A stretch of 64,000 nt of DNA, from positions 1,440,001 through 1,504,000 of the forward strand of contig OZ252149.1 of NCBI GenBank assembly GCA_965248755.1. The letters are read 5' to 3'. Both the position numbers and the translations under genes were made by a program. Positions 1 to 53,178 of the stretch are shown piece after piece (position 1 is the stretch's first letter; the number at the start of each line of letters is the position of its first letter). The stretch is from Candidatus Latescibacterota bacterium. GTDB lineage: Bacteria > Latescibacterota > CBDEFO01. The notes beneath the pieces are model-generated. The model was given only the letters and a program-made list of their open reading frames with translations. It searched no databases and had not been told where the DNA came from.

Positions 1-855
1 CCTCGATCTGCGCTCCGAAGCTGAGGCGCGCAGATTCAGATCCCGGGAGGATGAGCACTTCCTCAGGGAAACTCTATGGTGTCGGCTCATAAGTTATTAG
101 TGACGCGATCTTGGGATAAGGGTGCTGCCTGGGAGGGTCGTGAGTGGACAGTGCTGGGATACACGAATGTCCACAGTGTTCCGCTCCATCTACTCCTTAC
201 GATGCTTGAGGACGGGCGTTCCTCTATCCCATCTACGCTATGTGGAAGGGTGGGACCAGAGAGGGTCTGATCTTCCGGTCGACCGATGGGGGAGAGACGT
301 GGAGATTGCATGGGGCGTACCCGAGAGCAGGCGGCGAGTGGTAGATTTTGGAGGTGGAGCCGGGATTGCTCTTCAGGACACATCCGCAGTGGCTATCGTT
401 GGAGACATCCGAGGTCCTCGACAGATTCAATCGGGGATAGGATATTTGCTCTGGAGGTCTGGTCGGAGGACGGCGGGTTAACGTGAACATACCCTGTGGA
501 GGCGTCCTTTCAGGGCTATCCGAATCATCTATTGAAGTTAAGAGATAGTCGCATCTTATGCACGTTCGGGTATCGCCGCAAGCCTATGGGAGTGCGCGCG
601 CGCATAAGCGAGGATGTAGGACGCACCTGGGATTTAGATCACGAATATGTGTTGTGTGATGATGGAGGCACCACTTCAGACCCTTGGGGTCCTCCGCACT
701 CTGAGATTCCCGGGTTCGGTAGTTCCGACGTGGGTTATCCGACCTCAGTAGAGTTAGAGGATAGTTCGATTTTTGCTGTCTATTACATCAAGACTCCTGA
801 CGCCATAACTCACGTTGCATGCGCGCGTTGGCATCCCGACAGGGACAGGCTGTAG
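1..855 (+). pseudogene. Frameshifted paralog of the downstream BNR/Asp-box sialidase-like gene (5' part lies outside the window)
   Basis: Fragments in different frames (VTRSWDKGAAWEGREWTV, ALEVWSEDGG, FQGYPNHLLKLRDSRILCTFGYRRKPMGVRA...WHPDRD) match successive parts of 906..2051, interrupted by several frameshifts and a stop. Confidence 0.8.
415..438. repeat. Short palindromic element, copy inside the sialidase-like pseudogene
   Basis: tcctcgacagattcaatcggggat. The intact paralog reads HPEYDR here; this copy reads HPRSSTDSIGDR. Confidence 0.75.
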
Positions 856-905
856 AAGTAAGCTGGAAATTCACTCGATGTGATAAAAACAGGGAGTTCT
901 ACTCA

Positions 906-2051
906 ATGGAACACACGATAATTTTGAAGGAAAAGGGGCGCTACAACGCGTTTCCCGTTTTGGACCACCTCCCGGACGGACGGTTGACACTAGGCTTCAT
1001 CTCCTCGCCAGTTGGCGATCATATGGGAATGGGGGATTGGGCAGTCTTTGTATCATCGGACAGCGGTTCTACCTGGCAGCGGTCGGACGATCCGACGCTG
1101 CCTCCCAATTGGCCCGGGACTACCCCGCGTGAGAAGTACGATAGACTCTCCCGTATAATGCCCGACGGCAGCTTTATGGCAGTGGGATCGGTAGGGCATG
1201 AGCTTTGGGATTTCGGTCGGCGCGCCGAAGCTGAGGCTCGTGGATTGAGAATAATAGAGGACGAGATAATCTCCCAGCAACTCCCCGGAAAGCTCGTCGT
1301 GTCGGGGCATCGGCTGGTGGTGATAAGGTCGCAGGATAAGGGCGCCACGTGGGATCGGCGAACGTGGACAGTGCCGGGATACATTAGTCTGATTGGATTC
1401 CCGCGCGGCACGGTCCTTGAGGACGGAACCTGGCTCTTCCCCGTCTACACGAGTCGGAAGGATGGAGGCGGTGACGGTCTGATCTTCCGGACTGCCGACA
1501 GAGGGGAGACGTGGAGGCTCTATTTAGCAGTCCCAAGGGTGTGCAACGAGTGGGCATTGGTAGAGGTAGCACCTGGACGTGTACTGGGACACCTCCGCTG
1601 GGGCTATAGATGGGGACATCCGGAGTATGACAGGATGTACACCCTGGAGGTGTGGTCCGAGGACGGCGGTACAACGTGGACTCAACCGGTGGAAACGAAG
1701 TTCCAAGGTTATCCGAACCATCTGTTGAAGTTGCACGATGGACGCATCTTGTGCACATTCGGCTATCGTCGTAAACCTATGGGAGTGCGTGCGCTCATTA
1801 GCGAAGACAGAGGAAACACCTGGGATTTAGATCACGAGTATGTGTTAAGAGACGACGCCGGTACCACTTCGAGTTCTTGGCCTGCAGTGAAACACGCGCA
1901 GCCCGGGTCCGGAAGTTCTGATGTGGGCTATCCGATCTCGACGGAGCTGGACGATGGCTCTATCCTTACAGCCTATTACATTACGCAACCTGATGCCATA
2001 ACCCACGTGTCTGTCACGCGCTGGCATCCCGAGGGGGACAGGACGTCGTAG
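906..2051 (+). CDS. Sialidase-family / BNR (Asp-box) repeat beta-propeller protein
   Basis: Repeated S-x-D-x-G-x-T-W boxes (SSDSGSTW, SQDKGATW, TADRGETW, SEDGGTTW, SEDRGNTW) and C-terminal DVGYP. Start placed at ATG 906 after GGGAG. Confidence 0.8.
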   Translation: MEHTIILKEKGRYNAFPVLDHLPDGRLTLGFISSPVGDHMGMGDWAVFVSSDSGSTWQRSDDPTLPPNWPGTTPREKYDRLSRIMPDGSFMAVGSVGHELWDFGRRAEAEARGLRIIEDEIISQQLPGKLVVSGHRLVVIRSQDKGATWDRRTWTVPGYISLIGFPRGTVLEDGTWLFPVYTSRKDGGGDGLIFRTADRGETWRLYLAVPRVCNEWALVEVAPGRVLGHLRWGYRWGHPEYDRMYTLEVWSEDGGTTWTQPVETKFQGYPNHLLKLHDGRILCTFGYRRKPMGVRALISEDRGNTWDLDHEYVLRDDAGTTSSSWPAVKHAQPGSGSSDVGYPISTELDDGSILTAYYITQPDAITHVSVTRWHPEGDRTS

Positions 2052-2071
2052 TTACCCTGTCTTTTCTCGGC

Positions 2072-5332: not shown

Positions 5333-5567
5333 TAACCCGAATAATTTACACAAAAGGGCAGTGTATTAATTAAGGGATTGTATTATAATATAGTTATGCT
5401 GTTTAAGCGCCTTCGGTGTCCTTGCGAGCCGAAGGCGAAGCAATTTCGCTTCTGTGGTAGATGTAATACTCTCCGGCTCTCATAGGAGACCACTATAAAA
5501 CCTTGAGATTGCTTCGTCGCTTTGCTCCTTGCAATGACTCCACCAAGTTTATGAATTAATCGGGCTA
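5333..5567 (+). mobile_element. 235-bp MITE-like element, copy 1
   Basis: TA-ACCCGAATAATT...AATTAATCGGGC-TA terminal inverted repeats with flanking TA; closely similar to 47536..47770 and, reversed, to 22621..22868. Confidence 0.85.
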
Positions 5568-5582: not shown

Positions 5583-6662
5583 GTGTTTGAAACACTTCAT
5601 AAAATAGAGGAACACTACGAAAAGATCGAAAAACTCCTGGGTGAACCCCAGGCTGTGAATGACCACAAGCGCTATCAGGAGCTGGCCAAGGAGTATAGTG
5701 ACCTGGGCAGGACTATCTCAGTCTACAGGGAATATAAGTCCGTCTCAAATGACCTTTTAGAAGCCAAGGAGATTCTCAAAGATTCTGAAGATGGTGAGCT
5801 CGTGGAACTTGCCCGTGATGAAGCCGAAGAATTAAAGGAAAAGGAAAAGGGGCTTGGAGAAGAACTCAAGATTCTCCTTATATCCAAAGATCCCGCTGAT
5901 GAGAAGAACGCTATAGTCGAAATAAGAGCTGGAACCGGTGGGGAAGAGGCAGCCCTATTTGCGGCGGACCTCTACAGGATGTACTCCAGATATACGGAAA
6001 ACAGAGGATGGCAGATCGAACATATAAGCTCAAACCCGACGGGAATAGGAGGATTTAAGGAGATCATCTTTTCGGTCTCGGGCAAAAACGCCTATGGCGA
6101 TCTGAAATACGAAAGTGGGGTCCACAGAGTTCAAAGGGTCCCCCAAACAGAATCGAGCGGACGCCTCCACACGTCCGCAGCCTCCGTCGCAATCCTCCCC
6201 GAAGCTGAAGAGGTGGATGTCGAAATAGACCCTGAAGACCTCAAAATAGACTTCTTTCGCTCCTCAGGCCCCGGAGGACAGAGTGTCAACACTACAGATT
6301 CAGCGGTCAGAATCACGCACCTTCCTACAAACATCACCGTCCAGTGCCAGGATGAGAAATCCCAGCATAAGAACAGAGCAAAAGCCCTCAAAGTCCTCCG
6401 CTCCAGACTCCTGGATGCTGCTACCAGAGAACAACAGGAGAAACTTTCGTCCGACAGGAGAAGACAGATCGGGACAGGAGACAGGAGCGCAAAGATCAGA
6501 ACATACAACTTTCCTCAAAACAGAGTTACCGACCACAGGATCAATCTGACGCTCTACAAGCTCGAGGGCATCCTTGAAGGTGCAATTGACGAACTTGTAG
6601 ACGCTGTGCGCATCGCTGACCAAGCCGAGAAGATCGCCCAATTAGACGATGGCGGGGAATAA
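5583..6662 (+). CDS. prfA: Peptide chain release factor 1
   Basis: GPGGQSVN (GGQ), RVPQT (RF1 PxT), RTYNFPQ; followed by prmC. Confidence 0.97.
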   Translation: MFETLHKIEEHYEKIEKLLGEPQAVNDHKRYQELAKEYSDLGRTISVYREYKSVSNDLLEAKEILKDSEDGELVELARDEAEELKEKEKGLGEELKILLISKDPADEKNAIVEIRAGTGGEEAALFAADLYRMYSRYTENRGWQIEHISSNPTGIGGFKEIIFSVSGKNAYGDLKYESGVHRVQRVPQTESSGRLHTSAASVAILPEAEEVDVEIDPEDLKIDFFRSSGPGGQSVNTTDSAVRITHLPTNITVQCQDEKSQHKNRAKALKVLRSRLLDAATREQQEKLSSDRRRQIGTGDRSAKIRTYNFPQNRVTDHRINLTLYKLEGILEGAIDELVDAVRIADQAEKIAQLDDGGE

Positions 6663-7581
6663 TACATTCTCCACGATTGAACCCCCGACTGGATCGGGGA
6701 TTGGGGATGCCCTCAACAAAGCAATCCAGTTTTTAAGTTCCCGCGACATTGAAAGTCCCCGGATCAACGCAGAGAGGCTCCTTTGTCATGTGCTGGACGT
6801 TGACAGCTCGTTTGCTCTCTACCTTGAGCCCGATCGCTTGCTATCTCAGAACGAGTTGGACTCTTATCATTATCTTCTCAATAAAAGGATTAAAGGAATT
6901 CCACTCCAGTACATCGTTGGGAAGACAGAGTTTATGTCCCTTCCCATCAAAGTCGAGTCCCCGATCTTAATCCCGCGCCCTGAGACTGAAATTCTCGTAG
7001 AAACTGTCCTCGACAGATTCAAAGGCAACGAGAGTCGTCTACTTCTGGCAGCCGACATAGGCACAGGCGCAGGAAACATAGCTGTATCCCTTGCCCGCTA
7101 CATCCACGGGATCCACATCTACGCCACAGACATATTCCTCCCAGCTCTCAGACTTGCCCGATACAATTCCCGACTCAACGATACCGCCTTTAGAATAACG
7201 TTCCTTCACGGAGACCTTTTCGATCCCTTCAAAAGATACGACCTCCAGAACAGACTCGACCTTATAATCTCCAATCCTCCATACGTAAGGAGGTCGGATA
7301 TACCGCACCTTCCCGCCGAGATAAGGAATCACGAATCCCACAGAGCCATTGACGGCGGAAATGACGGACTCGACTTCTACAGGAGGCTTATCCCCCAGTC
7401 TTTTGAATATCTCAGATCCGGCGGTATCCTCGCCTTAGAGATAGGGTTAGGACAGTCAGAATCCGTATTCCAGATGATCAGAGACCTCAAAGTCGTGCGA
7501 CCACTGCGTGCTTTTACCCCTCCAAAGATCGTCAAGGACTTCAATGGGATAGACAGGGTTGTCCTGGCGCATAAGATCTGA
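6649..7581 (+). CDS. prmC: Release factor glutamine methyltransferase
   Basis: LIPRPETE, DIGTGAG, SNPPY; overlaps the prfA stop. Confidence 0.95.
   Translation: MAGNNTFSTIEPPTGSGIGDALNKAIQFLSSRDIESPRINAERLLCHVLDVDSSFALYLEPDRLLSQNELDSYHYLLNKRIKGIPLQYIVGKTEFMSLPIKVESPILIPRPETEILVETVLDRFKGNESRLLLAADIGTGAGNIAVSLARYIHGIHIYATDIFLPALRLARYNSRLNDTAFRITFLHGDLFDPFKRYDLQNRLDLIISNPPYVRRSDIPHLPAEIRNHESHRAIDGGNDGLDFYRRLIPQSFEYLRSGGILALEIGLGQSESVFQMIRDLKVVRPLRAFTPPKIVKDFNGIDRVVLAHKI
6670..6708. repeat. Nested, degenerate short palindromic element in the prmC 5' end
   Basis: tccacgattgaac[ccccgactggatcgggg]attggggat, read in-frame as STIEPPTGSGIGD. Confidence 0.6.
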
Positions 7582-7748
7582 AGAATTCCCTTTACATCAT
7601 GCCCGATTTTCCGTATCGTTTAAATGTGGGGACAACCTTACCTGGCCCCTATGAATCTCCCATTTCGAAAGCGGAAAGCCGATCATAGAGGTCCATACTC
7701 TGATCCTCAATCCGAAGACCCTAAATCCCAACGGAGTGGTCACACCAC

Positions 7749-8987
7749 TTGAAAAGAGTTGTAGTCACAGGCATCGGACTCGTCGCGCCCTTGGGATGTT
7801 CAAAAGACATAGTCTGGAAGAACGTCTCACAAGGAATCTCAGGCATCTCCCATCTGAAATGGGCGAAAGACCCCTTCCCCGTCAAAATCGGAGCGCAGGT
7901 TAGTGATTTTGAACCTGACCCCGGCGATAGCGGATATGACCGCTTTATCCAATTTGCCCTATCGGCAACAAGACAGGCAGTAAAAGACGCAGAACTCACG
8001 TTAGATTCTGATCTAAGTCAGCGCACAGGCGTCCTTATCAGCTCCAGCAAAGGAGGCATATCCACCTTCGAAAAATATCACTCCCGTCTTTTGGGATCTG
8101 GTCCTTCATCGATTCCGAAAAACCTCTGGTTCAACATAAGCCAGGCGTCCGCCTCTCAAGCTGTATCTAAACTTCTATCCCCGATAGATTCAATCGTGGA
8201 TCAACGTTTAGAGGGACCTTCCTACGGCATAGTATCTGCGTGCGCCACCGGAGCTCATTCCATCATCTCGGCATCCCACCTGATAAGCGAGGGAAGAGCC
8301 GACATTATGATAGCCGGGAGCAGCGACGCCTCCTTGACTCCCCTGATATTAGGGGGCTTCAGCAAGATGGGAGCGCTATCCCAAAAAGCCTCCCGCCCAT
8401 TTGATGCCGAAAGGGACGGATTCGTCCTCGGTGAAGGATGCGGTATCGTCGTCTTGGAATCCTTGGAGGGAGCAAAAAGGAGGAAGGCCAGTATCTATGG
8501 AGAGATACTTTCTACCGTGGCAATGTCTGAAGCCCATCACGTATCAGCTATCGAACCCGGAGGAAAGACTATAGGTCGAGCTGTCCAACTCGCTATACAG
8601 AGGGCTGATCTCTCCGCGAAAGATATAGATTATGTTAACGCTCATGCGACAGGGACGGTAGAAGGGGATATAGCTGAAACTTTAGCCATAAAAAGAGCGC
8701 TGGGAGAAAATGCTTACAGTGTAGCTATAAGTTCGACCAAATCTATGATGGGGCATCTACTGGGGGCCGCTGGGAGCGTCGAGTTTATCGTATCTTTACT
8801 CTGTATGGAAAACAACTACGTCCATCCGACTATAAATCTGGAAAATATAGATCCCCAATGCGACCTCGATTATACACCCAACGCAGGTGCCGCCAGGACC
8901 TTAAAAAATATAATGTCCCTGTCTTATGGCTTTGGAGGACACATCGCTGTTCTGTTAGCGGGCAAGCCTTTAAGTTATAGTAATTAA
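7749..8987 (+). CDS. Beta-ketoacyl-ACP synthase II-like (FabF family) protein
   Basis: KRVVVTGIG, SACATG (Cys), RPFDAERDGFVLGEG, NAHATGT and MMGHLLGAAG (His, His), SYGFGG; TTG start. No acpP adjacent, so orthology to housekeeping fabF is not certain. Confidence 0.88.
   Translation: MKRVVVTGIGLVAPLGCSKDIVWKNVSQGISGISHLKWAKDPFPVKIGAQVSDFEPDPGDSGYDRFIQFALSATRQAVKDAELTLDSDLSQRTGVLISSSKGGISTFEKYHSRLLGSGPSSIPKNLWFNISQASASQAVSKLLSPIDSIVDQRLEGPSYGIVSACATGAHSIISASHLISEGRADIMIAGSSDASLTPLILGGFSKMGALSQKASRPFDAERDGFVLGEGCGIVVLESLEGAKRRKASIYGEILSTVAMSEAHHVSAIEPGGKTIGRAVQLAIQRADLSAKDIDYVNAHATGTVEGDIAETLAIKRALGENAYSVAISSTKSMMGHLLGAAGSVEFIVSLLCMENNYVHPTINLENIDPQCDLDYTPNAGAARTLKNIMSLSYGFGGHIAVLLAGKPLSYSN
8177..8201. 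repeat. Short palindromic element in-frame in the fabF-like gene
   Basis: atccccgatagattcaatcgtggat encodes SPIDSIVD. Confidence 0.8.
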
Positions 8988-9043
8988 CCAGCAAAATTGC
9001 AGCTAGCACATTGCGATCTTCGCGTCATTACTGTATAGTTGAT

Positions 9044-9450
9044 GGATGCTTATCCGTCGTTGCTGCGACAGTAAGAAATTTCGGAGACTTTCTACTGGCC
9101 AGAGACGATGCTAGCGGTGTGGTTTAACCAGAAGGTTTACCGAAACCACCTGGCAGAAAATCAGAGTGTCTCCCTATTGGAGGGGCGGGCCGGTAGAGTT
9201 TTCTCTTTAGGTGTATCAGCAATTACATTGAGATTCCAAGTGCCTTTAGATCCTAAGACGATTCAATGATGGTTTAGAATCCCTAGAGTGACAATCTACG
9301 ATCAATAGGCAAAGGAACTCTTGACTCTCTCAGGACAAATTGAAATGGATAAGACTCTCTTTGGTGATAGGCGATCTGGTAAGTGAGTTCGGGCAGCTTC
9401 AGGAAAACTAATGGTCTTTGGCATCTACCAGAGAAAAGGCCGTGTTCATC
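9044..9450 (+). pseudogene. IS1595-family transposase remnant
   Basis: Manual translation gives Zn-ribbon-like CCDSKKFRRLSTGQRRC*RCG and LSGQIEMDKTLFGDRRSGK*VRAASGKLMVFGIYQRKGRV. This resembles the IS1595 core LSGEIEVDESYFGG...RGRGA.GK..VFG. Internal stops; truncated. Confidence 0.7.
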
Positions 9451-9577
9451 TCAAGCTTTACATACTCACTCTCATTTTGGCTGCAGCTTCGCCGCCCTGA
9501 GTCCATCGTTAATTACGCAGTGCGAAGTCCCCAATAACGAAAGTTCACCGCAGCGAAGTCATCGAACGACCAGAATC

Positions 9578-11425
9578 TCACTTGAGGTCCACCTTCTGCA
9601 GATCGCGCCGTGGGAGGATGAGGCTGACCGCCGTTCCCACCAGGATGCTCACCGCCAGCGACACCGGTCCAATCCACTGAAAGCTGATCGGGTCGACGCA
9701 CGTCTTCCAAGGTTCGCCGCTGACCGGGTCGATCTTGGTAATGACTTCCACGTTAAACATTGCCGGATCGACACCGAATTGCGTGTGTAGCCAATAGACC
9801 AGCGGACCGGAAAAAGCAATCGACGCTGCGGAAGCGATTGCCAGCACTGTTCCGATCCAGACCCCCGGCACCGTCGCACGCCGCACGAACAGGGCGAAAA
9901 AGAAGAGCCCGAAAATGGGTGCCGTCAGCAGGTTGACCGTCTTGTTCGTCATGGCCGTAATGTTGCCGGGGATGTATCCCATGTAGGAGCTGCCCAGCAC
10001 CACAGTCAGTCCAATGCCCAGCGCCAACAGCCGCGCCACGAGCACGTGACCCTTTTCGGTTCTTGGCTTCAAGCCGAATCGATCCAGAAAATCGGTCATG
10101 ACGACAGCCGTGACCGAGTTGACTCCCGAATCGATACTCGACATGGCCGCCGCGAACATCGCCGCGACGACTAGCCCGGACACGCCGATGGGAAGATAAA
10201 AGGCAATGTAGTGTGGAAACAGATCATCGGCGTTGGATTTCAGGTCCATGCCCTCCGGCAGATCAGCGTAATTCGCTTGAAAGTAGCCCAACAGAGCGAA
10301 TCCGACCAAGGTCAGCGTCAACCCGACGATCACACCAACCGTCAGTTGCGTGGCCACCGCTCGCTGGGCAGCGCGTAGATCAGTCGTCGCCATAAAACGC
10401 TGGATGACCGTCTGATCCCCGCCGGCAGTACAAACGTACCAAGTAAGAACCGAAAGGATGGTACCAACCACGGTGACACGGGTCTGTGGATCGAAGCTGA
10501 AGAAGGGCTGCGTATCCCAATTCGGGTGCCAAGTGGTGGGGAACCACCCCAATCCACCAAGACTCCAGCTGACGGTCACAAGCACCAACAAGGCACCGCC
10601 AAAAAGCAGCATGGTTTGCATGAAGTCGGTTACCACGACCGCCCGAAGACCGCCTAGTGTGGTGTAGATCACCGACACCACTCCCGTTACAAGCACGATC
10701 AACGGTATCCATTTGGCATCGACGCCCATCATCACCGTAAGTGCCTTGGCGGCCAGATAAACCAGCAGCGTCATCCAGAACAGACGCAGGGTAAGGAACA
10801 TCACCGCACCCAACAGGCGTATACTCAACCCCAGCCTTTCTTCCAGCAACTCGTAGGCGCTGGTGACGCGGTGTCGCATATAAACTGGCAGCAGGACGTG
10901 CGCTATGATGAAATAGATCAGCGGGTAGCCTAACAGGCTGAACAGAATGACCGGTCCTTTGCCAGCGCTCTCGCCGGGGATCGACAAGTAGGAGATCGTG
11001 CTCAACAGCGTTGCGAACAGCGAAACGCCTATCAGGAGCGAGTTTATGTTGCCTCCACCGACGAAATACTCCTCGGTGGAACTCTGCTTGCGGCTGAAAT
11101 AGACTCCCAGACCGATCGTCGAAACCGCGTAAATTGCGATGAGCACCCAATCCAGGGGCTGCAGGCCGACAGTTTTCATCACGGTCGATTGAGCCACCGC
11201 CTCGTCTGCCAAGGCCGAGTTACCCGGGAGCGCCAAGTAAGCAGCACACAGGGCGAGAGGGTGTTTTAATACCTTAAGAGAGAGGCCGCCGCCCCGCCGA
11301 AACATGGACAATGCCTGGCTCGAAACACCGTCGAAACAGCATAGATTTAATCGTGCAGATAATTTCATGGGTGCAACCAGCCGGTAAGTCTTGATAGGGG
11401 AAATGATCACAAATCTAACAGTCAA
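9578..11425 (-). CDS. Sodium:solute symporter (SSS family). The true start is probably downstream, near 11305 or 11180
   Basis: EEYFVGG, GVSLFATLLSTISYL, SAYELLEERLG, YTTLGGLRAVVVTD, AAAMSSIDSGVNS; many TM segments; visibly GC-richer than its flanks. Confidence 0.9.
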   Translation of the reverse strand: MTVRFVIISPIKTYRLVAPMKLSARLNLCCFDGVSSQALSMFRRGGGLSLKVLKHPLALCAAYLALPGNSALADEAVAQSTVMKTVGLQPLDWVLIAIYAVSTIGLGVYFSRKQSSTEEYFVGGGNINSLLIGVSLFATLLSTISYLSIPGESAGKGPVILFSLLGYPLIYFIIAHVLLPVYMRHRVTSAYELLEERLGLSIRLLGAVMFLTLRLFWMTLLVYLAAKALTVMMGVDAKWIPLIVLVTGVVSVIYTTLGGLRAVVVTDFMQTMLLFGGALLVLVTVSWSLGGLGWFPTTWHPNWDTQPFFSFDPQTRVTVVGTILSVLTWYVCTAGGDQTVIQRFMATTDLRAAQRAVATQLTVGVIVGLTLTLVGFALLGYFQANYADLPEGMDLKSNADDLFPHYIAFYLPIGVSGLVVAAMFAAAMSSIDSGVNSVTAVVMTDFLDRFGLKPRTEKGHVLVARLLALGIGLTVVLGSSYMGYIPGNITAMTNKTVNLLTAPIFGLFFFALFVRRATVPGVWIGTVLAIASAASIAFSGPLVYWLHTQFGVDPAMFNVEVITKIDPVSGEPWKTCVDPISFQWIGPVSLAVSILVGTAVSLILPRRDLQKVDLK

Positions 11426-11779
11426 TTCCCAGTGGGGAAGCCCTGGGCGTAGCGGTCCCCCAATCGCTCCACTCCCGTTGCCAATCTCCTTACAGAGCCG
11501 TTACGCCGTTGCCAATAACAGGTGTTATTCCTAACCTTTGTTGGCGAGCGCCCTCTGCGGAAGTTCACGGCGAAATCGAGACTGGCATGGAACAAAACGG
11601 TCACTCTCTCCTCTAATCCGACATTCCCCATATCAAATTTACAAGGGATTATAATTAGCTAGAATCTTGTTCGTGAATTAATATTGCCACTTTTACATTT
11701 TTCAACAAGTACTTTTTTCAATCAAAATAGCATTCTCCTCTGAATTATTACTTTCTTTGTGCTGATATCTTCCAATTAG

Positions 11780-11970
11780 AGACACTTCTCAATGGAGATA
11801 TGTGCACCGGAATTGACAGTTGTATGCTGACCAGTCCTGCTCGCCAACGTACAGGGCTTTCGGAACTGTCCAAATCCAGAATGATTCGTCCCTTCTTGAA
11901 TCCACAGACCACTTATATCTGACAGGCTGTTGAGATTTTCGAGCAGCGCCAGTATCTCTGTATTTATGCT
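11780..11970 (-). pseudogene. IS1380-family transposase remnant
   Basis: Minus-strand manual translation: NTEILALLENLNSLSDISGLWIQ / RIILDLDSSESPV / GEQDWSAYNCQFRCT, resembling IS1380 ILDMDSSESPVHGEQEGSAYNGHF; frameshifted. Confidence 0.65.
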
Positions 11971-12196: not shown

Positions 12197-12253
12197 GATC
12201 CAGAGCAGAAAATATTGGATCTTTCAATCTCCTTCTCTTAGCACTATCCGACT

Positions 12254-13627
12254 ATGGAAAAGGTCATCATAGGAGTCTCAGGTGTAAGAGGCATCGTAGG
12301 CCAGGGGCTATCTGCCAAGGATGTTCTTGAGATGTCCGCCGCCTTCGGAAAGATCTGTGAGGTAGGAAACGTGCTGGTGGGAGGGGATACCAGGACGTCG
12401 GGAGATATGCTCAGATACGCCGCTATATCGGGCCTCCTCTGGGCAGGATCAGACGCAACAGATGCAGGAATTTGTCCCACCCCCACAATTCAGATGGCCG
12501 TTAAGGACGGTGACTTCCAGGGAGGAATAGCGGTAACTGCAAGTCATAATCCCCCCGAGTGGAACGGACTCAAATTCATAGGCCCAGACGGCATATTCTT
12601 ATCCCCGATAGATTCAATCAGGGATAAAGAAAAAGGCAGAAAACCTGCAGATCTCTTCCAAAAATGCAAGGTTCCTCCCCCGGACTGGGAAAAAGTAGGG
12701 CACGTCAAAGCTGCCAGTTGCTTCATAAAAGAACACATCTATAAAATACTCTCACTCGATCTTGTGGATGTTCAGAAGATAAGAGAGAGAAGGTTCAAAG
12801 TAGCGATAGACTGCTGCAACGGGGCAGGTTCCCTTATAAGCCCCCTCCTTCTGAGACATCTCGGATGCGAAGTGATCGAACTGAACTCAAAGCCTGATGG
12901 GATCTTCCCTCACGATCCCGAACCTGTTCCTGAGAGCCTTGGACAACTCTCTACAGCCGTGGGAGAATATGGTGCAGATGTGGGATTTGCGAACGATCCT
13001 GACGCCGACCGACTCTCCATCGTATCGGAAAAGGGGGAGGCTATCGGCGAAGAATACACGTTAGCTCTCTGTGTAAAATTTGTATTGATAAAGAAGAAAG
13101 GTCCAGTGGTCGCTAATCTATCTACGAGCCGCATGTTAGACGATATTGCCGCTGAATTCGGCACAAAGGTGCACAGATCAGCCGTCGGAGAGCTCAACGT
13201 GGCAAAAAAGATGCAAACGGTAGATGCCGTCGTAGGAGGCGAGGGCAACGGAGGTGTTATGCTCCCTGCATTGCATCTGGGGAGAGACGCTCCTCTGGGC
13301 ACGGCGTTAATTTTGAGCTATTTAGCCCAATCTGAAAAGACTCTCTCAGATCTTGCATCTTCCATCCCGAAGTACGTTATGCTCAAACAAAAACTGGACC
13401 TTGGGACCAAAGAACCATCGGAGGTGCTCCATTTAGTAAAGCAGATCTATTCCAAAGAATACATGGATCACACAGACGGGGTTAAGGTTATGGGACCAGA
13501 TTGGTGGCTCCACGTCAGAGCATCAAATACCGAACCTGTGCTCCGCCTCATATCCGAAGCCCCACAAAGAAAAAAAGCCGAACTTTTGTGCAAAAGCATC
13601 AAAGATAGACTGAGAAAATTCAAATGA
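12254..13627 (+). CDS. glmM: Alpha-D-phosphohexomutase (phosphoglucosamine mutase / phosphomannomutase)
   Basis: SGVRG, TASHNP (phospho-Ser), DPDADR (metal loop), GEGNGG, RASNTEP. Linkage to murA favours GlmM. Confidence 0.75.
   Translation: MEKVIIGVSGVRGIVGQGLSAKDVLEMSAAFGKICEVGNVLVGGDTRTSGDMLRYAAISGLLWAGSDATDAGICPTPTIQMAVKDGDFQGGIAVTASHNPPEWNGLKFIGPDGIFLSPIDSIRDKEKGRKPADLFQKCKVPPPDWEKVGHVKAASCFIKEHIYKILSLDLVDVQKIRERRFKVAIDCCNGAGSLISPLLLRHLGCEVIELNSKPDGIFPHDPEPVPESLGQLSTAVGEYGADVGFANDPDADRLSIVSEKGEAIGEEYTLALCVKFVLIKKKGPVVANLSTSRMLDDIAAEFGTKVHRSAVGELNVAKKMQTVDAVVGGEGNGGVMLPALHLGRDAPLGTALILSYLAQSEKTLSDLASSIPKYVMLKQKLDLGTKEPSEVLHLVKQIYSKEYMDHTDGVKVMGPDWWLHVRASNTEPVLRLISEAPQRKKAELLCKSIKDRLRKFK
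12601..12625. repeat. Short palindromic element in-frame in glmM
   Basis: atccccgatagattcaatcagggat encodes SPIDSIRD. Confidence 0.8.
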
Positions 13628-15331: not shown

Positions 15332-15450
15332 TAGATTACTTCGCTACGCCCCGGTTGAATCGGGGGTCCGATAACGGTTCGTTGTTGCTTGCAATGAGGT
15401 CTGATGAGACCTTTGGTCATTGCAAGGGGTGAAACCCTGAAGCAATCTCA
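15332..15450. repeat. Degenerate GATTGCTTCG...GCAATGAC-type palindromic repeat pair with a nested short palindrome (15349..15365)
   Basis: agattacttcgctacg[ccccggttgaatcgggg]...ttgcaatgag and gtcattgcaagggg...gaagcaatct; same family as the MITE core. Confidence 0.6.
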
Positions 15451-16662: not shown

Positions 16663-16667
16663 TGCCT

Positions 16668-20972: not shown

Positions 20973-21068
20973 TCCCCCGAATGAATCTACCCCCGATTGA
21001 ACCCCCAATTGTGATCCTCTATTGAATCTATAGGGGGTTGGGGGTTGGGGGTTGGGGACTATCGGGGG
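20973..21068. repeat. Nested stack of the short palindromic element
   Basis: Left arms cccccgaatgaatcta, cccccgattgaa, cccccaattg; core cctctattgaatctatagggg; right arms gttgggg x3 and actatcggggg. Confidence 0.65.
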
Positions 21069-31835: not shown

Positions 31836-31863
31836 GCCCCGATAGACTCAATCGGGGGCTTTA
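31835..31863. repeat. Short palindromic element at a stop codon, terminator-like
   Basis: agccccgatagactcaatcgggggct followed by tta. Confidence 0.75.
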
Positions 31864-40191: not shown

Positions 40192-41367
40192 ATGCAGATC
40201 AAGGACGTAAAGTTTTACATCCTCGAAGGCGAGCCGAGTGGGAGGCACGTCAGAGGCTCAGCCCCCATTGAGAAGGTACCTCCTGGATTGTCGGGACTCT
40301 TTACTCATTCGTATGGCATTCGTGGGGAAGAGTCGGAACATAATCCTGAACTCATAGAGTACAGGGACGATACCCTAATGCCCACATATACCTCTATGAT
40401 GCGTTTGGTTACGGATGGGGATCTGGATGCCTACATGGGATTCGGCAGTGGTTTTCACCGTGACGAACTGGAGTGGGAGGCAAAACGGATCAAAGCGACC
40501 ACTGCCACTCTGTTGATAGGCGTGGACGCTTTCGACCGGGAATACATCTGGCAGAGATTGTGGTACGCCAAACGGTTCTCCTACCCCCGAATTAGCGCAA
40601 AGATAGACTTTATGCTGTGGGATCTGGCCAGTCGACATGCCAAGCTGCCGCTCTACAAGCTATTAGGAGGTTATAGAGAGGAGATTCCAGTGTACCAGAA
40701 TATCGTCGGTGTAACGATAGACGATCTGGTCGCGAAAGCTCTGCAGGCCAAGGAGGAAGGGTATGTTGGGTGTAAGGATCACTCCACTCGCGGTGTGGAA
40801 GGAAATATCGAAATGGCACAGGAGCTCCGCGCCGCAGTGGGAGATGATTTTCTCTTAATGCACGATCCTGTAGAGAACTATACCTACAACGATGCCGTAA
40901 AGGTTGGACGAGCTTTGGAGAAACTCAACTATTCCTGGATGGAGGAACCTCTTCAAGATTGGGATTTTATGGGACTCAAGAAATTATGCGATACATTGGA
41001 TTTACCGATATTAGCTTTAGAGTGGTCAGGAGCAGTAACCGGAGGACAGCCGTATAACGCATCCGGATTTTTGGCCATGCAGGCTGTGGACATCGTTCGT
41101 CAACGTGGGAAGGATATAACGGCACAGATGAAGCTGGCCCATCTGGCCGAGAGCTTCGGGGTCAATGTGCACGGTGGAGACCCCAACGTAATCCTGGCCA
41201 TAAAGAACGATCCGATATTCGAGAAGAGCGTCGGCATGGGCACGTTGAGAACAGCAAGCGGCAGAGCCGTCGTTGAAGATGGCTATATGTCCATCGATTA
41301 CAAGGATCATCCCGTAGAGGAACCGAATTGGGACGAGATCGAAAAGAAAGCGTTGGTGGTAATCTGA
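40192..41367 (+). CDS. Enolase-superfamily enzyme, tandem paralog 1
   Basis: LWDLASRHAKLPLYKLLGG, CKDH, MHD, WMEEP, ALE, NVHG. Start MQIKDV is shared by all four copies. Confidence 0.88.
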   Translation: MQIKDVKFYILEGEPSGRHVRGSAPIEKVPPGLSGLFTHSYGIRGEESEHNPELIEYRDDTLMPTYTSMMRLVTDGDLDAYMGFGSGFHRDELEWEAKRIKATTATLLIGVDAFDREYIWQRLWYAKRFSYPRISAKIDFMLWDLASRHAKLPLYKLLGGYREEIPVYQNIVGVTIDDLVAKALQAKEEGYVGCKDHSTRGVEGNIEMAQELRAAVGDDFLLMHDPVENYTYNDAVKVGRALEKLNYSWMEEPLQDWDFMGLKKLCDTLDLPILALEWSGAVTGGQPYNASGFLAMQAVDIVRQRGKDITAQMKLAHLAESFGVNVHGGDPNVILAIKNDPIFEKSVGMGTLRTASGRAVVEDGYMSIDYKDHPVEEPNWDEIEKKALVVI

Positions 41368-41517
41368 GCTGTAGAAAAGCTTGCGGATGAATCAGTAGAT
41401 CAAGGAATTAACATAAGGAACTATTGTAATAACGGACAAACGTAAGCGCGACCGCTTCGTGGTGTACTGCCTACGCTTCATCCTCACCTGGCCACGTTAA
41501 CAAGAGAGGTTCTTTCA

Positions 41518-42708
41518 ATGCAGATCAAGGACGTAAAGTTTTACATCCTCGAAGGCGAGCCGAGTGGGAGGCACGTCAGAGGCTCAGGCCCCATTGAGAA
41601 GGTACCTCCTGGATTGTCGGGACTCTTTACTCATTCGTATGGCATTCGTGGGGAAGAGTCGGAACATAATCCTGAACTCATAGAGTACAAGGACGATACT
41701 CTGATGCCGACCTACAGCTCTATGATGCGTTTGGTTACGGATGGGGATCTGGATGCCTACATGGGATTCGGCAGTGGTTTTCACCGTGACGAACTGGAGT
41801 GGCAGGCAAAAACCTTCAAGGCGTACACTGCCCGACTGTTAATAGGCGTGGACGCTTTAGACCGGGAATACATCTGGCAGAGATTGTGGTACGCAAGACG
41901 GTTCTCCTACCCGATAAGTGGGCAGATAGACAATATGCTGTGGGATCTGGCAAGTCGACATGCCAAGCTGCCGCTCTACAAGCTATTAGGAGGTTACAGA
42001 GAGGAGATTCCAGTGTACCAGAATATCGTCGGTGTAACGATAGACGATCTGGTCGCGGAAGCTCTGCAGGCCAAGGAGGAAGGGTATGTTGGGTGTAAGG
42101 ATCACTCCTATCGCGGTGTGGAAGGAAATATCGAAATGGCACAGGAGCTCCGCGCCGCAGTGGGAGATGATTTTCTCTTAATGCACGATCCTGTAGAGAA
42201 CTATACCTACAACGATGCCGTAAAGGTTGGACGAGCTTTGGAGAAACTCAACTATTCCTGGATGGAGGAGCCTCTTCAGGACTGGGACTTTATGGGACTC
42301 AAGAAGTTATGCGACACATTGGATTTGCCGATTTTAGCTTTAGAGTGGTCAGGAGCAGTAACCGGAGGACAGCCGTTTAGCGCATCTTCATTTTTGGCCA
42401 TGCAGGCTGTGGACATCGTTCGTCAACGTGGGTGGAGTATAACGGCAGAGATGAAGGTAGTCCATCTGGCCGAGAGCTTCGGAGTCAATGTGCACGGGGG
42501 AAATCCCCATGTAGTGCTGGCTACAAGAAACGATCCAACATTCGAGCTGACCTCCTTGCATGGAGCAGGTGCTCCGAGCGATGAGAAACTTACTGTCCGG
42601 GGTAGACCTGTCGTTGAAAACGGATATTTGTACATCGCTTGGGCGGACAATCCTGTAGAGGAACCGAATTGGGACGAGATCGAAAAGAGAGCTTTGGCGG
42701 TAATCTGA
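41518..42708 (+). CDS. Enolase-superfamily enzyme, tandem paralog 2
   Basis: Same motifs as paralog 1. Confidence 0.88.
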   Translation: MQIKDVKFYILEGEPSGRHVRGSGPIEKVPPGLSGLFTHSYGIRGEESEHNPELIEYKDDTLMPTYSSMMRLVTDGDLDAYMGFGSGFHRDELEWQAKTFKAYTARLLIGVDALDREYIWQRLWYARRFSYPISGQIDNMLWDLASRHAKLPLYKLLGGYREEIPVYQNIVGVTIDDLVAEALQAKEEGYVGCKDHSYRGVEGNIEMAQELRAAVGDDFLLMHDPVENYTYNDAVKVGRALEKLNYSWMEEPLQDWDFMGLKKLCDTLDLPILALEWSGAVTGGQPFSASSFLAMQAVDIVRQRGWSITAEMKVVHLAESFGVNVHGGNPHVVLATRNDPTFELTSLHGAGAPSDEKLTVRGRPVVENGYLYIAWADNPVEEPNWDEIEKRALAVI

Positions 42709-42902
42709 GGTCTAGAAAAGACTGCGGATGAACCAGTAGATCAAGGAATTAACAGAAGGAATTATTGTAATAACGGACAAATGTAAGCGCGACCGCTTCG
42801 TGGTTTACTGCCGCCGCTTTGTCCTCCCTGACAAAGCTCCCGTGGCGTCTCGTCCGTACAAAAACACATTCCGTAATCACATTAACAAGAGAGATTCTTT
42901 CC

Positions 42903-44096
42903 ATGCAGATCAAGGACGTAAAGTTTTATATCCTCGAGGGAAAGCCGAGTGGGAGGCACGTCAGAGGCTCAGGACCTATTGAGAAGGTACCTCCTGGATT
43001 ATCTGGACTCTTTACTCATTCGTATGGCATTCGTGGCAAAGAGTCGGAACATAATCCTGAACTCTTAGAGTACAGGGACGATACCCTAATGCCCACATAT
43101 ACCTCGATGATGCGTATGGTCACCGATGGGGACCTGGATGCCTACACCGGAATCGGCAGTGGTTTTCATCGTGACGAACTGGAGTGGCAGGCCAAACACA
43201 TCAAAGCGACCACTGCCACTCTGTTGATAGGCGTGGACGCTTTCGACCGGGAATACATCTGGCAGAGATTGTGGTATGCAAAACGGTTCTCCTATCCAAG
43301 AATTGAAGACAAGATAGACTTTATGCTGTGGGATCTTGCCAGTCGACACGCCAAATTGCCGCTCTACAAGCTATTAGGAGGTTACAGGGAGAGGATTCCA
43401 GCGTACGAGAACATCGTAGGTGTAACGATAGACGATCTGGTCGCAGAAGCTGTGCTGGCAAAGGAGCAAGGGTTTGTTGGGTGTAAGGATCACTCCTATC
43501 GCGGTGTGAATGGGAATATCAAAATGGCACAGGAGCTCCGCGCCGCAGTGGGAGATGATTTTCTCTTAATGCACGATCCTGTCGAGAACTATACCTACAA
43601 CGATGCCGTAAAGGTTGGACGAGCTTTAGAGAAACTCAACTATTCGTGGATGGAGGAACCTCTTCAAGATTGGGATTTGATGGGACTTAAGAAGTTATGC
43701 GATACGTTGGATTTACCGATATTAGCTTTAGAGTGGTCAGGAGCAGTAACCGGAGGACAGCCCTATAACGCATCCGGATTTTTGGCTATGCAGGCTGTAG
43801 ACATCGTGCGCCAGCGCGGGAAGGACATAACAGCACAGTTGAAGGTGGCCCATCTGGCCGAGAGCTTCGGGGTCAATGTGCACGGTGGAGCCCCCCATGT
43901 AGTCCTGGCTATAAAAAACGATCCAGTATTTGAGGCTGCCTCCTGGGGAACAGCAAGGGATCTTACCGATGCAAAACTTACTTTCCAGGGCACGGCAGTC
44001 GTTGAAGATGGCTATATGTACATCGCTTGCGGGGATCATCCTGTAGAGGAACCGAATTGGGACGAGATCGAAAAGAAAGCTCTGGAGATAATCTGA
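42903..44096 (+). CDS. Enolase-superfamily enzyme, tandem paralog 3
   Basis: Same motifs as paralog 1. Confidence 0.88.
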   Translation: MQIKDVKFYILEGKPSGRHVRGSGPIEKVPPGLSGLFTHSYGIRGKESEHNPELLEYRDDTLMPTYTSMMRMVTDGDLDAYTGIGSGFHRDELEWQAKHIKATTATLLIGVDAFDREYIWQRLWYAKRFSYPRIEDKIDFMLWDLASRHAKLPLYKLLGGYRERIPAYENIVGVTIDDLVAEAVLAKEQGFVGCKDHSYRGVNGNIKMAQELRAAVGDDFLLMHDPVENYTYNDAVKVGRALEKLNYSWMEEPLQDWDLMGLKKLCDTLDLPILALEWSGAVTGGQPYNASGFLAMQAVDIVRQRGKDITAQLKVAHLAESFGVNVHGGAPHVVLAIKNDPVFEAASWGTARDLTDAKLTFQGTAVVEDGYMYIACGDHPVEEPNWDEIEKKALEII

Positions 44097-44247
44097 AGAT
44101 TAGAAAGAGACTGCAAACGAACGTGCAGATCAAAGAATTAACATAAGGAATTATTGTAATAATGGACAAATGTAAGCGCGACCGCTTCGTGGTTTACTGC
44201 CTCCGCTTCATCCTCGCCTCACCACGTTAACAAGAGAGGTTCTCGCA

Positions 44248-45423
44248 ATGCAGATCAAGGACGTAAAGTTTTATATCCTCGAGGGCGAGCCTAGCGACAG
44301 GCACGTCAAAAACACAGAATCTGTTGAGAAGGTACCTCCTGGATTGTCAGGAATCTTTACACGTTCGCATGGCATTCTTGGCACAGACTCGGATTATAAT
44401 GAAGAACTCATAGAGTACAAGGATGATACTCCAACGCCGACATACAACTCTATGATGCGTCTGGTCACCAATGGGGATCTGGATGCCTACACTGGATTCA
44501 ACAGTGGTTTTCACCGTGACAACCTGGAGTGGGAGGCAAAACAGATCAAAGCGACCACTGCCACTCTGTTGATAGGCGTGGACGCTTTAGACCGGGAATA
44601 CATCTGGCAGAGATTGTGGTACGCCAAACGGTTCTCCTACCCCCGAATTAGCGCGAAGATAGACTTTATGCTGTGGGATCTGGCTAGTCGACACGCCAAG
44701 CAACCCCTCTACAAGCTATTAGGAGGTTACAGGGAGAAGATTCCAGCGTACCGGAATCTCCCCGATGGAACGATAGACGATCTGGTCGCAGAAGCTGTAC
44801 AGTTCAAGGAAGAAGGGTTTAAGGGGTGTAAGGATCACTCCTATGGCGGTGTGAAGAGGAATATCGAACTGGCACAGGAACTCCGCGCCGCAGTGGGAGA
44901 TGATTTTCTCTTAATGCACGATCCTGTCCAGAACTATACGTACAACGATGCGGTAAAGGTGGGACGAGCTTTGGAGAAACTCAACTATTCGTGGATGGAG
45001 GAACCCCTCCAAGATTGGGACTTAATGGGACTCAAGAAGTTATGCGATACATTGGATTTACCGATATTGGCTTTAGAGTGGTCAGGCGCGGTAACAGCAG
45101 GACAGCCGTATAACGCCTCGGGATTTTTGGCCATGCAGGCTGTGGACATCGTTCGTCAACGTGGGAAGGATATAACGGCACAGATGAAGCTGGCCCATCT
45201 GGCCGAGAGCTTCGGGGTCAATGTGCACGGTGGAGACCCCAACGTAATCCTGGCCATAAAGAACGATCCGATATTCGAGAAGGGCGTCGGCATGGGCACA
45301 TTGGGAACAGCAAGCGGCAGGGCCGTCGTCGAAGATGGCTATATGTCCATCGATTACAAGGATCATCCCGTAGAGGAACCGAATTGGGACGAGATCGAAG
45401 AGAAAGCTCTGGTGGTAATCTGA
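44248..45423 (+). CDS. Enolase-superfamily enzyme, tandem paralog 4
   Basis: Same motifs as paralog 1. Confidence 0.88.
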   Translation: MQIKDVKFYILEGEPSDRHVKNTESVEKVPPGLSGIFTRSHGILGTDSDYNEELIEYKDDTPTPTYNSMMRLVTNGDLDAYTGFNSGFHRDNLEWEAKQIKATTATLLIGVDALDREYIWQRLWYAKRFSYPRISAKIDFMLWDLASRHAKQPLYKLLGGYREKIPAYRNLPDGTIDDLVAEAVQFKEEGFKGCKDHSYGGVKRNIELAQELRAAVGDDFLLMHDPVQNYTYNDAVKVGRALEKLNYSWMEEPLQDWDLMGLKKLCDTLDLPILALEWSGAVTAGQPYNASGFLAMQAVDIVRQRGKDITAQMKLAHLAESFGVNVHGGDPNVILAIKNDPIFEKGVGMGTLGTASGRAVVEDGYMSIDYKDHPVEEPNWDEIEEKALVVI

Positions 45424-47535: not shown

Positions 47536-47770
47536 TAGCCCGAATAGTTCACAAAAAAAGGACGTGTATTAATTAAGGGATTGTATTATATTATAGTTAT
47601 GCCGTTTAACCACCTTCGGTGTCATTGCGAGCCGGAGGCGAAGCAATCCCGATTCTGTGGTAGATGTAATACTCTCCGGCTCTCATAGGAGATCACTATA
47701 AAACCTTGAGATTGCTTCGTCGCTTTGCTCCTCGCAATGACTCCACCAAGTTTATGAATTAATCGGGTTA
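47536..47770 (+). mobile_element. 235-bp MITE-like element, copy 3
   Basis: TA-GCCCGAATAGTT...AATTAATCGGGT-TA; same length as copy 1. Confidence 0.85.
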
Positions 47771-51929: not shown

Positions 51930-52860
51930 GTTCCTCCAGCCAGCTTTCTAAATCGCTGTTCCGCCACCCCTGCGGCCGGTAATTCAACATGCGGGCTGCC
52001 CGTTCATGCGACCAGAGGGAACAATGGTCGTGCAGGGGGGTCTTTAGCGGGACTTTCGGATAGTAACGGGCAACGAGTTGCGCAGTCTCTTGGACGGTGT
52101 AGACTTCATTGCCGAGAATCTGGAAGACGTCATGGACGATTTCGTCGTTCTCCAGCGCCAACCGGCAGGCAACGCCGGTATCTCTGGCGTCCGTGACGTC
52201 CCAGAGCACCTTTGGACCTGGCGGTTTTCCCCTTTCGGGGTCCTGCCTGCGGAGCTGGTATTCCGTCCACATTTCTTCCACGGAGGCGAATCGCACAGTG
52301 CCGCCTCCTGAGCGAACTGCCACTTCGGCCCCTTCCCGATCCACATACCAGTTGTTGCCCAGGCGCAGGCAGATGGTATGAATGCCGTACGCATCTGAGT
52401 ACCGCTTGCACGTGAGTTCACCCAGCAGTTTGCTAAGACCGTATTCGTCCTGCGGCTCGCAGGGGTGCTCCTCATCGATAGGAAAATAGCGCGGGATGAT
52501 CTGATTTTTCGCGAACGTTATACCCGCGGCTGCAGCTGAAGATGCGAACACAACTTTGGCCACACCCACCGCCACGGCCGCCTCGAGAACGCGAAGCGTC
52601 CCGATGATATTGCCGTGCATCATCTGCTCGGGCGTGACCAGGCCCAATCCGGTGACAGCGGCCAGGTGTAATATGGCGTCGTGGCCCGGACAGATCTGCA
52701 GCAGTTGCTCTGCCTCCATGATGTCACCCTGAATGAATCGCGCACCGGACACCAGCGGCTCTCGGCGACCGAAGCTCGAGACAATATGCCCGGCGCCGAG
52801 TAACTCTCGCAGTGCATAGCCACCGAGCCTGCCGCTGCCCCCTGTTACAAGAACCTTCAT
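51913..52860 (-). CDS. NAD-dependent epimerase/dehydratase family protein
   Basis: VTGGSGRLG, HLAA, ASS, YGLSK. Confidence 0.9.
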   Translation of the reverse strand: MKVLVTGGSGRLGGYALRELLGAGHIVSSFGRREPLVSGARFIQGDIMEAEQLLQICPGHDAILHLAAVTGLGLVTPEQMMHGNIIGTLRVLEAAVAVGVAKVVFASSAAAAGITFAKNQIIPRYFPIDEEHPCEPQDEYGLSKLLGELTCKRYSDAYGIHTICLRLGNNWYVDREGAEVAVRSGGGTVRFASVEEMWTEYQLRRQDPERGKPPGPKVLWDVTDARDTGVACRLALENDEIVHDVFQILGNEVYTVQETAQLVARYYPKVPLKTPLHDHCSLWSHERAARMLNYRPQGWRNSDLESWLEERGDPI

Positions 52861-53151
52861 CTTGTGCTCTCCTCTCTCAGGTCAGTTTCCAACGCGGGTT
52901 TGCCTCCTTCAGGAACGTGAAAGCTACTTGGGACCCCTTACAGAGGTTCCTGGACTGCTCACTCCTTCTGATGGTCTCCAGAAAAACAGGTAGCGAACCC
53001 TGCTGCACGCCCTCGCTGAATGTCTAAACTGAGCCCGTACAGCAGCCACGAAGACGGTAGGCGACATGCCTTCACTCAGATCTTCAATGAATTTCAAAGG
53101 TCGCATAACCATCCTGTGTCTACGAAGTTCCGAAGGCATACGGATAGTCCC

Positions 53152-53178
53152 GATCCCCGATAGACTCAATCGGGGATC
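53152..53178. repeat. Short palindromic element, perfect intergenic copy
   Basis: gatccccgat-agactca-atcggggatc. Confidence 0.85.

Follow-up and report, generated by a model that had tools for sequence, protein, structure and literature searches.

An apparently mobile 23-nt hairpin in a Latescibacterota genome and its copies in conserved genes

A short palindrome recurs in a 64,000-nucleotide stretch of DNA from a Candidatus Latescibacterota bacterium (assembly GCA_965248755.1, contig OZ252149.1, positions 1,440,001 to 1,504,000; here called the window), both between genes and inside genes for conserved enzymes such as glmM and fabF. How does so small a repeat reach these places, and does it aim for the reading frames in which it is found? 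We compared the source genome (G000, 4.54 Mb) with that of a congener, a sister species about 95% identical to it (G001), and find that the repeat is, almost beyond doubt, a real and recently active mobile element, a very small hairpin. The first-pass annotation of the window had proposed a very small non-autonomous mobile palindrome that adds peptides to conserved enzymes, an idea that is borne out by filled and empty versions of the same sites, by length differences among protein homologues and by the loop in a model of GlmM.

The hairpin unit and its copy number

The repeated unit, Y-CCCCGATAGANTCAATCGGGG-R, is a hairpin of 23 nt with an 8-bp stem and a 7-nt loop. Base pairing around the core sets its limits. 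Among 533 copies, positions -1 and +1 are complementary in 412 (242 expected; T-A in 251, C-G in 159), but positions -2 and +2 are complementary in 143 (174 expected), so the unit is 23 nt long with a stem of 8 bp. A compensatory change of G5-C17 to A-T occurs in 19 copies, some of them belonging to one subfamily, with the two single changes in 12 and 9, and the stem variants include G-T pairs. The A8/A14 mismatch that closes the loop is retained in 505 of the 533 copies, and the loop shows no less conservation than the arms.

The oriented core, CCCCGATAGA(T/C)TCAATCGGGG, has 580 copies (at most 4 mismatches) scattered across the whole source chromosome. They are mostly single, with a median gap between neighbours of 4.5 kb and 35 of 579 gaps shorter than 120 nt. 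Some subfamilies have a fixed 4-nt foot (RCAGG in 26 and RCAAG in 24 of the 580). A genome-wide search for the arms CCCCGAT and ATCGGGG, suggested by the first-pass annotation, found 237 exact-arm copies with the 7-nt spacing, compared with 0 and 0 in two simulated order-5 Markov genomes. A 3-nt spacing gave 16 copies, and spacings of 0-2, 4, 5 and 8-13 nt gave zero. The window has 5 matches, whereas 100 shuffled versions averaged 0.45; a scan of the window with Rfam gave zero matches.

With at most 1 mismatch, the source genome contains 312 copies and the sister species 331, and the remaining 59 of the 61 genomes of the phylum that were searched contain none. An adapter or assembly artefact is ruled out because about 80% of the comparable sites are common to the two assemblies and have diverged.

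Filled and empty sites in two species

Orthologous flanks were located for 250 of 533 copies in the source genome and 256 of 348 in the sister species. The other genome lacks the full copy at 40 and 59 of these sites, respectively; counting sites with unique flanks only, it is missing at 33 of 210 and 38 of 204. An anchor filter passed 75 of the 99 candidate sites, some of which are nested or decayed variants. Defining events by a net size of 17-28 nt and merging repeats of the same host, we obtained 48 distinct filled/empty events: +18 (nine), +19 (17), +20 (seven), +21 (three), +24 (one), +26 (two) and +27 (nine). These form two size classes, the unit minus 2-5 target bases (mode +19) and the unit plus 3-4 bases (mode +27). 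Target bases are deleted in 36 of the 48.

A minimal MITE (miniature transposable element with inverted repeats), with two 8-bp inverted ends, a DDE transposase and a 4-bp target duplication, would account for part of this pattern. Of 491 distinct copies, 20 stand between direct repeats of 4 nt (shuffled pairs gave 3.0) and 44 between those of 3 nt (12.9 expected), clean 4-nt duplications of TTGA, TTCA and CTTG occur, and the source genome has many multi-copy transposase-like genes. The deletion class largely refutes such an element, whose target-site duplication would be constant. Several +27 events also bring bases that are foreign to the target (CCTG, CAGG), the loop is as constrained as the supposed ends, and a single complex would scarcely be able to pair two ends that lie 7 nt from each other. 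We consider a MITE very unlikely.

The junctions differ from their empty counterparts in a consistent way. Mismatch to the empty allele climbs from 2-3 of 36 at 12-14 nt to 10 of 36 at position -2 and reaches 12 of 36 at +2. In 37 of 44 untied comparisons between differing 4-mers, other copies have the filled version more often as their flank. Foreign added bases, junction mismatches and flank bias together suggest that tails of the donor are carried over. Such tails would overwrite the target, and many of the apparent target duplications would therefore be matches between tail and target.

The replaced 4-mer has a central pyrimidine-purine (YR) step in 13 of 17 cases, CG in 9 of them (p = 4e-6). 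Other repeats are frequent hosts. Among the 491 distinct copies, 74 are nested in the hairpin itself (0.7% of random sites), 123 are near GCAATC-type repetitive extragenic palindromes (REPs; 2.5% of random sites) and 56 are near CTGTCTA heptamers (0.6% of random sites); GTAG REPs host 20, far above random sites. Some copies travel as hitch-hikers: the hairpin fills 15 of 71 ends of one insertion sequence (IS) and 13 of 39 sites in a REP-MITE. Orientation relative to transcription is unbiased (147 versus 142).

A MITE-like repeat of 235-240 nt, built around a GCAATC-type REP pair, lies at 5333-5567, 22617-22819 and 47536-47770 of the window. It has dozens of copies in both genomes, and the 23-nt hairpin enters it at two fixed sites. 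The source genome also contains 71 copies of a 109-aa IS open reading frame (ORF), 49 copies of a probable IS1380-like fragment, and 15 copies of an element presumably of IS256 type.

Could the hairpin be immobile, as a selected protein-binding site or terminator, or as hairpins made locally by template switching? Its pseudo-dyad symmetry and the intergenic position of 81% of the copies would fit. The filled/empty pairs refute this, since the sequence is present or absent as a block at dozens of sites. It also nests in itself, occupies coding loops and IS ends, shows no bias of orientation and has an identical asymmetric loop in a second phylum. We give immobility next to no credence. Some copies may have been put to regulatory use later.

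The pairs might also be mostly losses, in which old hairpins are excised by slippage or hairpin cleavage. The large share of common sites is consistent with this, nested copies show contractions of 12 nt, and slippage between 4-nt repeats would restore the empty site for the +27 class. However, in the +19 class the empty allele has 4 bases that are missing from its filled counterpart, private copies show no more decay than shared copies do (1.1-1.2 versus 1.3-1.4 mismatches), outgroup proteins are without the inserts, and the filled sites number 15 of the 71 IS ends and 13 of the 39 in the REP-MITE. A history mainly of loss is highly improbable.

We favour, with moderate confidence, capture of the hairpin at a break. 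A single-stranded hairpin fragment carrying about 4 bases of donor flank on its short tails would be captured at a break whose ends are about 4 nt apart and joined by short-homology repair. If the overhangs are lost the result would be +19, and if they are kept, +27. The donor tails would anneal and overwrite 1-4 target bases. The break itself may be made by a host nuclease, or a visiting one, that cuts at hairpins.

Several points weigh against capture at staggered breaks. The comparison covered 2.79 of about 4.6 Mb of the sister genome, and 24 of the 99 sites were discarded for poor anchors, including two that a cruder measure sized at +22 and +23. Two genomes leave the direction of change unpolarised at most sites, and some pairs may be excisions. 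Twenty of the 44 three-base repeats are TAG/CTA, likely derived from heptamer hosts. The flank test is not independent, because many events lie in repeated hosts, and gene conversion mimics its signal. The event at 1760538 of the source genome keeps the target bases at -1/+1 and equally fits a 19-nt insertion between C and G. The genes were called with our own hexamer model (3700 genes, 78% of the source genome). No moving enzyme was found among RAYT, IS91, IS110, GIY-YIG and reverse transcriptase (RT) genes, and no intermediate was seen.

Insertions in genes and the copies of the window

By place, 83 of the 580 copies (14%) are inside genes, 468 (81%) are between genes and 29 are at gene edges. 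Genes cover 78% of the genome and are not the main target; the preference for housekeeping genes proposed in the first-pass annotation is not supported. Nor are coding copies more mismatched, as had been supposed (means of 1.45 for coding and 1.57 for intergenic copies, p = 0.54).

The coding copies are read as SPIDSIGD (21), PDRFNRG (16), PRLNLSG (15) and SPIESIGD (30), and the two frames that carry a stop have 0 and 1. Four frames are used genome-wide, where a single surviving register and one stop frame had been assumed. Among events of net 15-34 nt, 12 of 14 are in frame within coding sequence, compared with 14 of 41 elsewhere (p = 0.0014); the two out-of-frame coding events are in a multi-copy transposase-like gene and a 151-aa ORF. 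Since the commonest insertion, +19, shifts the frame, survival in frame reflects selection. In-frame insertion is therefore not an inherent property of the element, as first thought. The hairpin does not aim for the frame, and selection retains the +18, +21, +24 and +27 outcomes.

All 13 chosen proteins have a gap of 5-11 residues in the comparison with the sister species. They include FabF, a MutS2-type protein and a Gfo/Idh/MocA oxidoreductase; a further one is presumably SMC-like, a label taken from its N-terminal motif. Other hosts in the sister species, from 27 of 55 candidate frames scanned, include SecA, LpxD, an AcrB-type pump and MeaB.

In the window, the repeat is found at every position first reported. 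Five copies are full units, the one at 15349 is a short variant, and those at 6670 and 20973 are nested stacks. The peptides quoted for the window are likewise confirmed. Comparison with orthologues and a structural model, two checks proposed along with them, gave inserts of 7 residues in GlmM, 9 in FabF and 9 in PrmC, and placed that of GlmM in a predicted loop.

The glmM gene (12254-13627) contains a forward unit at 12602..12624, read as SPIDSIRD. It adds 7 aa relative to 118 of 120 homologues; of the other two, one is 8 shorter and one, a near-identical relative, has the insert. Two solved structures also lack it. In the predicted model the insert lies in a loop, residues 120-134, with a predicted local distance difference test (pLDDT) score below 50, a low confidence that is partly forced because the aligned homologues never cover the insert.

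The fabF gene (7749-8987) contains a forward unit at 8178..8200, read as SPIDSIVD, which adds 9 aa relative to 115 of 119 homologues. The same gene has an empty site at 7992..8000 (forward strand) that is filled by a perfect copy on both contigs of the sister species, with CTTG on each side, a gain of 27 nt and 9 added residues. The empty allele departs from the filled one by several substitutions as well. The sister genome holds the region of the window twice, on L120 (G001 C2) and L020 (G001 C4), and its two fabF copies are unequal, one having gained 3 nt next to the hairpin, which suggests either continued length change at the edges of the insert or two strains.

At 6670..6707, a reverse-strand copy with a nested 17-nt variant (core 6683-6699) encodes part of the N-terminus of PrmC (gene 6649-7581). 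This region is 9 aa longer than in 9 of 10 outgroup orthologues and 5 aa longer than in the sister species, where the site has a simple copy without the nested variant; those 5 residues come from the nested variant. Protein loops can be seen to grow stepwise, by insertion and then nested re-insertion, with a filter for frame. Sitting in loops, linkers and termini, the peptides are probably passengers that the proteins tolerate.

The prmC and fabF region includes a second small mobile family, GGTGGTGCGACCACTCCGT-like, at 7491-7509 and 7731-7749. It has 39 copies (at most 3 mismatches; 0 for the reversed pattern), 27 of them in genes, and several 18-nt presence/absence pairs with the sister species. 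Close to its C-terminus, PrmC is 6 aa (VVRPLR) longer than 10 of 10 outgroups through one such insert, and it is thus host to two families. The 17-nt hairpin variant also targets the GGTGGTGCGACCACTCCGT-like family. A third family, GTCAGACAGGAATGTCTGACC-like, has 61 copies in the source genome, 3 in genes and none in the window, with one 24-nt presence/absence pair.

The forward copy at 415..437 (2 mismatches) lies in a broken BNR/sialidase-like paralogue. It had been described as an in-frame insert with the adjacent intact paralogue as an empty-site control. The length difference stands, at 18 nt relative to the intact paralogue, but stops and frameshifts disrupt the reading frame, and the gene is a pseudogene rather than an in-frame host. 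The counterpart in the sister species holds a nested 17-nt variant (+15). At 15348..15366 (strand undefined) a 17-nt short variant with a 3-nt loop lies 3' of murA within a GCAATGAC-type REP, and is shared with the sister species. A TolB-like repeat gene has at its end a reverse-strand stack of nested decayed copies (20973..21067), the innermost core being 21016-21036. Two forward copies are intergenic: 31836..31858 has a perfect core, within which the sister species has an extra nested copy, and 53154..53176 is a perfect unit, for which folding predicts a hairpin of -10.5 kcal/mol (z = -4.1) and a loop of 7 nt. Among the sequencing runs listed as containing the hairpin there was no RNA run, and contigs of four runs over 5600-21200 gave no empty allele among the matches listed; we use neither result as evidence.

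Beyond the hairpin, the window contains a tandem duplication (21064-22338 and 23029-24303) of a 307-aa ORF that matches no Pfam family, taking in the region upstream of it as well as a 70-nt repeat. Five tandem paralogues of the mandelate racemase/enolase family occupy 39029-45423, four of them 83-98% alike in DNA.

Other lineages, moving enzymes and known repeats

The first-pass annotation treated the element as confined to its lineage. Instead, the exact core is present in Deltaproteobacteria/Thermodesulfobacteriota records, among the matches listed, and 13 of 96 genomes of the "Deltaproteobacteria" class carry the same sequence. Five genomes from such records have 33, 9, 9, 5 and 8 copies, and 0 of the reversed pattern. 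Of 62 distinct copies from other-lineage genomes and metagenome loci together, 61 have complementary bases at the terminal pair; the metagenome search pattern demanded Y and R ends, not their pairing. Single exact matches, for example on a Nanoarchaeia contig (L226), were left uncounted as possibly due to chance or mis-binning.

In these other lineages the hairpin likewise nests in itself and in REPs and encodes the same peptides. In an inositol monophosphatase, SPIDSIGD grows by stepwise nesting, and one EamA protein is 9 aa longer, through a related variant, than 5 of 5 aligned members of its cluster. The presence of the same sequence in both groups suggests horizontal spread between phyla of a unit that is too short to encode anything.

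At one locus (L396), the exact core is an arm of a REP dimer, tagged TGTC-ATCCCCGAT...ATCGGGGAT-CC, and at three others (L369, L277, L287) close variants of the core are tagged arms. The TGTC tag is kept by 2 of the 580 copies in the source genome (TGAC-type flank, 1 + 1). These tagged forms agree with the description of the CGTC superfamily in PMC3733652, and the hairpin likely began as a single arm from a REP of CGTC/TGTC type whose tag has since been lost. A bolder proposal, which we put forward tentatively as somewhat improbable, is that it is a self-contained 23-nt DNA parasite without a gene of its own. Its 4-nt tails would choose the target by base pairing, host enzymes would capture it at 4-nt staggered breaks, and it would have crossed phyla unchanged, seeding SPIDSIGD, PDRFNRG, PRLNLSG and SPIESIGD in unrelated proteomes.

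What might move it? In the window, 39 distinct ORFs were scanned and the sole transposase family is of the Mutator/IS256 type, in keeping with the earlier statement that the mobiliser is not there. That transposase (57307-58308) is without about the first 70 positions of the profile. A search for a HUH/RAYT or GIY-YIG gene flanked by the hairpin, which had been recommended, yielded none.

A visiting HUH enzyme, of the RAYT/TnpA-REP or IS200/IS91 type, might read the A/A mismatch, cut and transfer one strand, leaving the host to finish the junction. TnpA-REP acts on single-stranded REPs and depends on a stem with a bulge at a mismatch as well as on a foot of 4 nt (PMC8266576). Here the A/A mismatch is nearly always retained, some subfamilies have a fixed foot, and the 5 "Deltaproteobacteria" carriers tested all have Y1 genes. 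Against this, Y1/RAYT genes were found in neither the source genome nor the sister species (98% and 96% complete), and Y2/IS91 is absent from 7 of 7 carriers. None of the 12 Y1 loci inspected, out of 31 matches, has the hairpin, the GTAG foot is lacking and both junctions are variable. We consider a HUH enzyme unlikely, though a real contender.

Target-primed reverse transcription of an RNA hairpin, with a second nick 4 nt to either side giving duplication or deletion, seems to us distinctly unlikely. The position of the second nick decides between duplication and deletion in target-primed insertion generally, the source genome has two RT genes, and G-T pairs occur among the stem variants. However, neither RT gene is flanked by the hairpin (the nearest copies are about 0.7 kb away, in an IS end, and about 2.4 kb away), orientation to transcription is unbiased, Rfam is blank, and donor-type flanks are found on both sides. 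The RT genes are at 3731598-3733370 and 3677787-3679310 of the source genome; the first adjoins a 301-aa ORF, retron-like by eye, and an IS abuts it.

Other searches gave no recurrent candidate. In 148 of 175 ORF clusters within 500 nt of other-lineage copies there were one DDE_3, one IS110 and one Mrr gene, none of them recurrent. IS110 is present in just 2 of 7 carriers. Fifteen tyrosine-recombinase matches were listed, viral contigs gave zero exact matches to the hairpin, and none of 62 genes with a hairpin on both sides is transposase-like by eye.

The sister species encodes a GIY-YIG nuclease of about 97 aa (L246:1400-1800) between TGTC-tagged REP hairpins, a different REP from the 23-nt unit. 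Gene-less derivatives of this cassette are at 1272056-1272217, 2714105, 2979141, 3031450 and 3547838 of the source genome, and one cassette arm alone is a 20-nt insertion there that is missing from the sister species. As a mobiliser of the 23-nt hairpin GIY-YIG is rejected: the query had 0 matches among 5 "Deltaproteobacteria" carriers, whose genomes are incomplete, but matched 9 of 16 non-carriers. Our literature search found no paper linking a GIY-YIG nuclease with CGTC-type REPs. The source genome, in the region around 1272100 and at large, is heavily loaded with other repeats, among them an element with 85 copies and GTAATTATCGATCCACTGAG and CTTGAGGGTCCTGAAAAAAC ends. Elsewhere, 4064164-4065897 and 19 related ORFs make up 20 linked ORFs, the longest of which resembles, by eye, a helicase of UvrD type; shared IS-derived ends may have linked them artificially.

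The repeats that the hairpin most resembles are those of Nostoc. Elhai et al. 2008 (Genome Res 18:1484) are said to have described SDR1-8, small dispersed repeats (SDRs) of 21-27 nt, as dispersed mobile hairpins that reportedly show compensatory stem changes and nest in themselves, in heptamer repeats and in mini-transposons. On these features, the 23-nt hairpin is like the Nostoc SDRs in size, dispersal, copy number (580), empty sites, compensatory stem and nesting, as well as in having several families per genome and no known mobiliser. The existence and mobility of the SDRs are reported in further sources (PMC5861425, PMC4390886, PMC3116915, PMC2884548). In one of them, SDR5 inserts precisely at one position of HIP1 (PMC4390886). 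The target of the hairpin is loose by comparison, centred on YR, with about 4 bases lost or gained. It also occurs in other phyla, and the likeness drawn here lies in form and behaviour.

CGTC/TGTC-tagged REPs (Di Nocera et al. 2013) are described as having no dedicated transposase and some intragenic copies (PMC3733652). The hairpin shares with them an 8-9-bp stem, the AT start of its tagged form and some intragenic copies. It differs in its loop of 7 nt rather than 4-5, in the near absence of the tag (2 of 580), in being mostly single rather than in head-to-head dimers and in inserting into REPs. We found no account of this hairpin family or of a junction rule by which about 4 bases are lost or gained, in a literature search whose coverage excludes most subscription journals; the figures or supplements of PMC3733652 may list a related consensus. 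GTAG REPs with RAYT (PMC8266576, PMC3116915) are likewise short imperfect hairpins with a conserved mismatch and hundreds of copies. The 23-nt hairpin is without their GTAG foot, their REP doublets and, in the two Latescibacterota genomes, a RAYT; its GTAG-like flanks come from heptamer hosts.

Rickettsia palindromic elements (RPEs), the precedent cited in the first-pass annotation, are about 105-150 bp long with nearly half in ORFs (PMC10969869, PMC3184786). Like the hairpin, they add a palindrome-encoded peptide in frame to unrelated conserved proteins. The hairpin differs from them in that it is 23 nt long, has 14% of its copies in genes, uses four frames and is in frame only as a result of selection. 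By analogy, Nostoc SDRs together with the intragenic CGTC and GTAG REPs appear to be the closest precedent, rather than the RPE. Because both intragenic REPs and RPEs exist, in-frame peptides of this kind are a known phenomenon. How repeats of REP or SDR size spread is a different matter, REP dissemination being termed poorly understood (PMC8266576). For these repeats, the 48 natural before-and-after pairs give a testable junction rule, in which about 4 bases are lost or gained at a YR-centred target and donor tails would be carried over.

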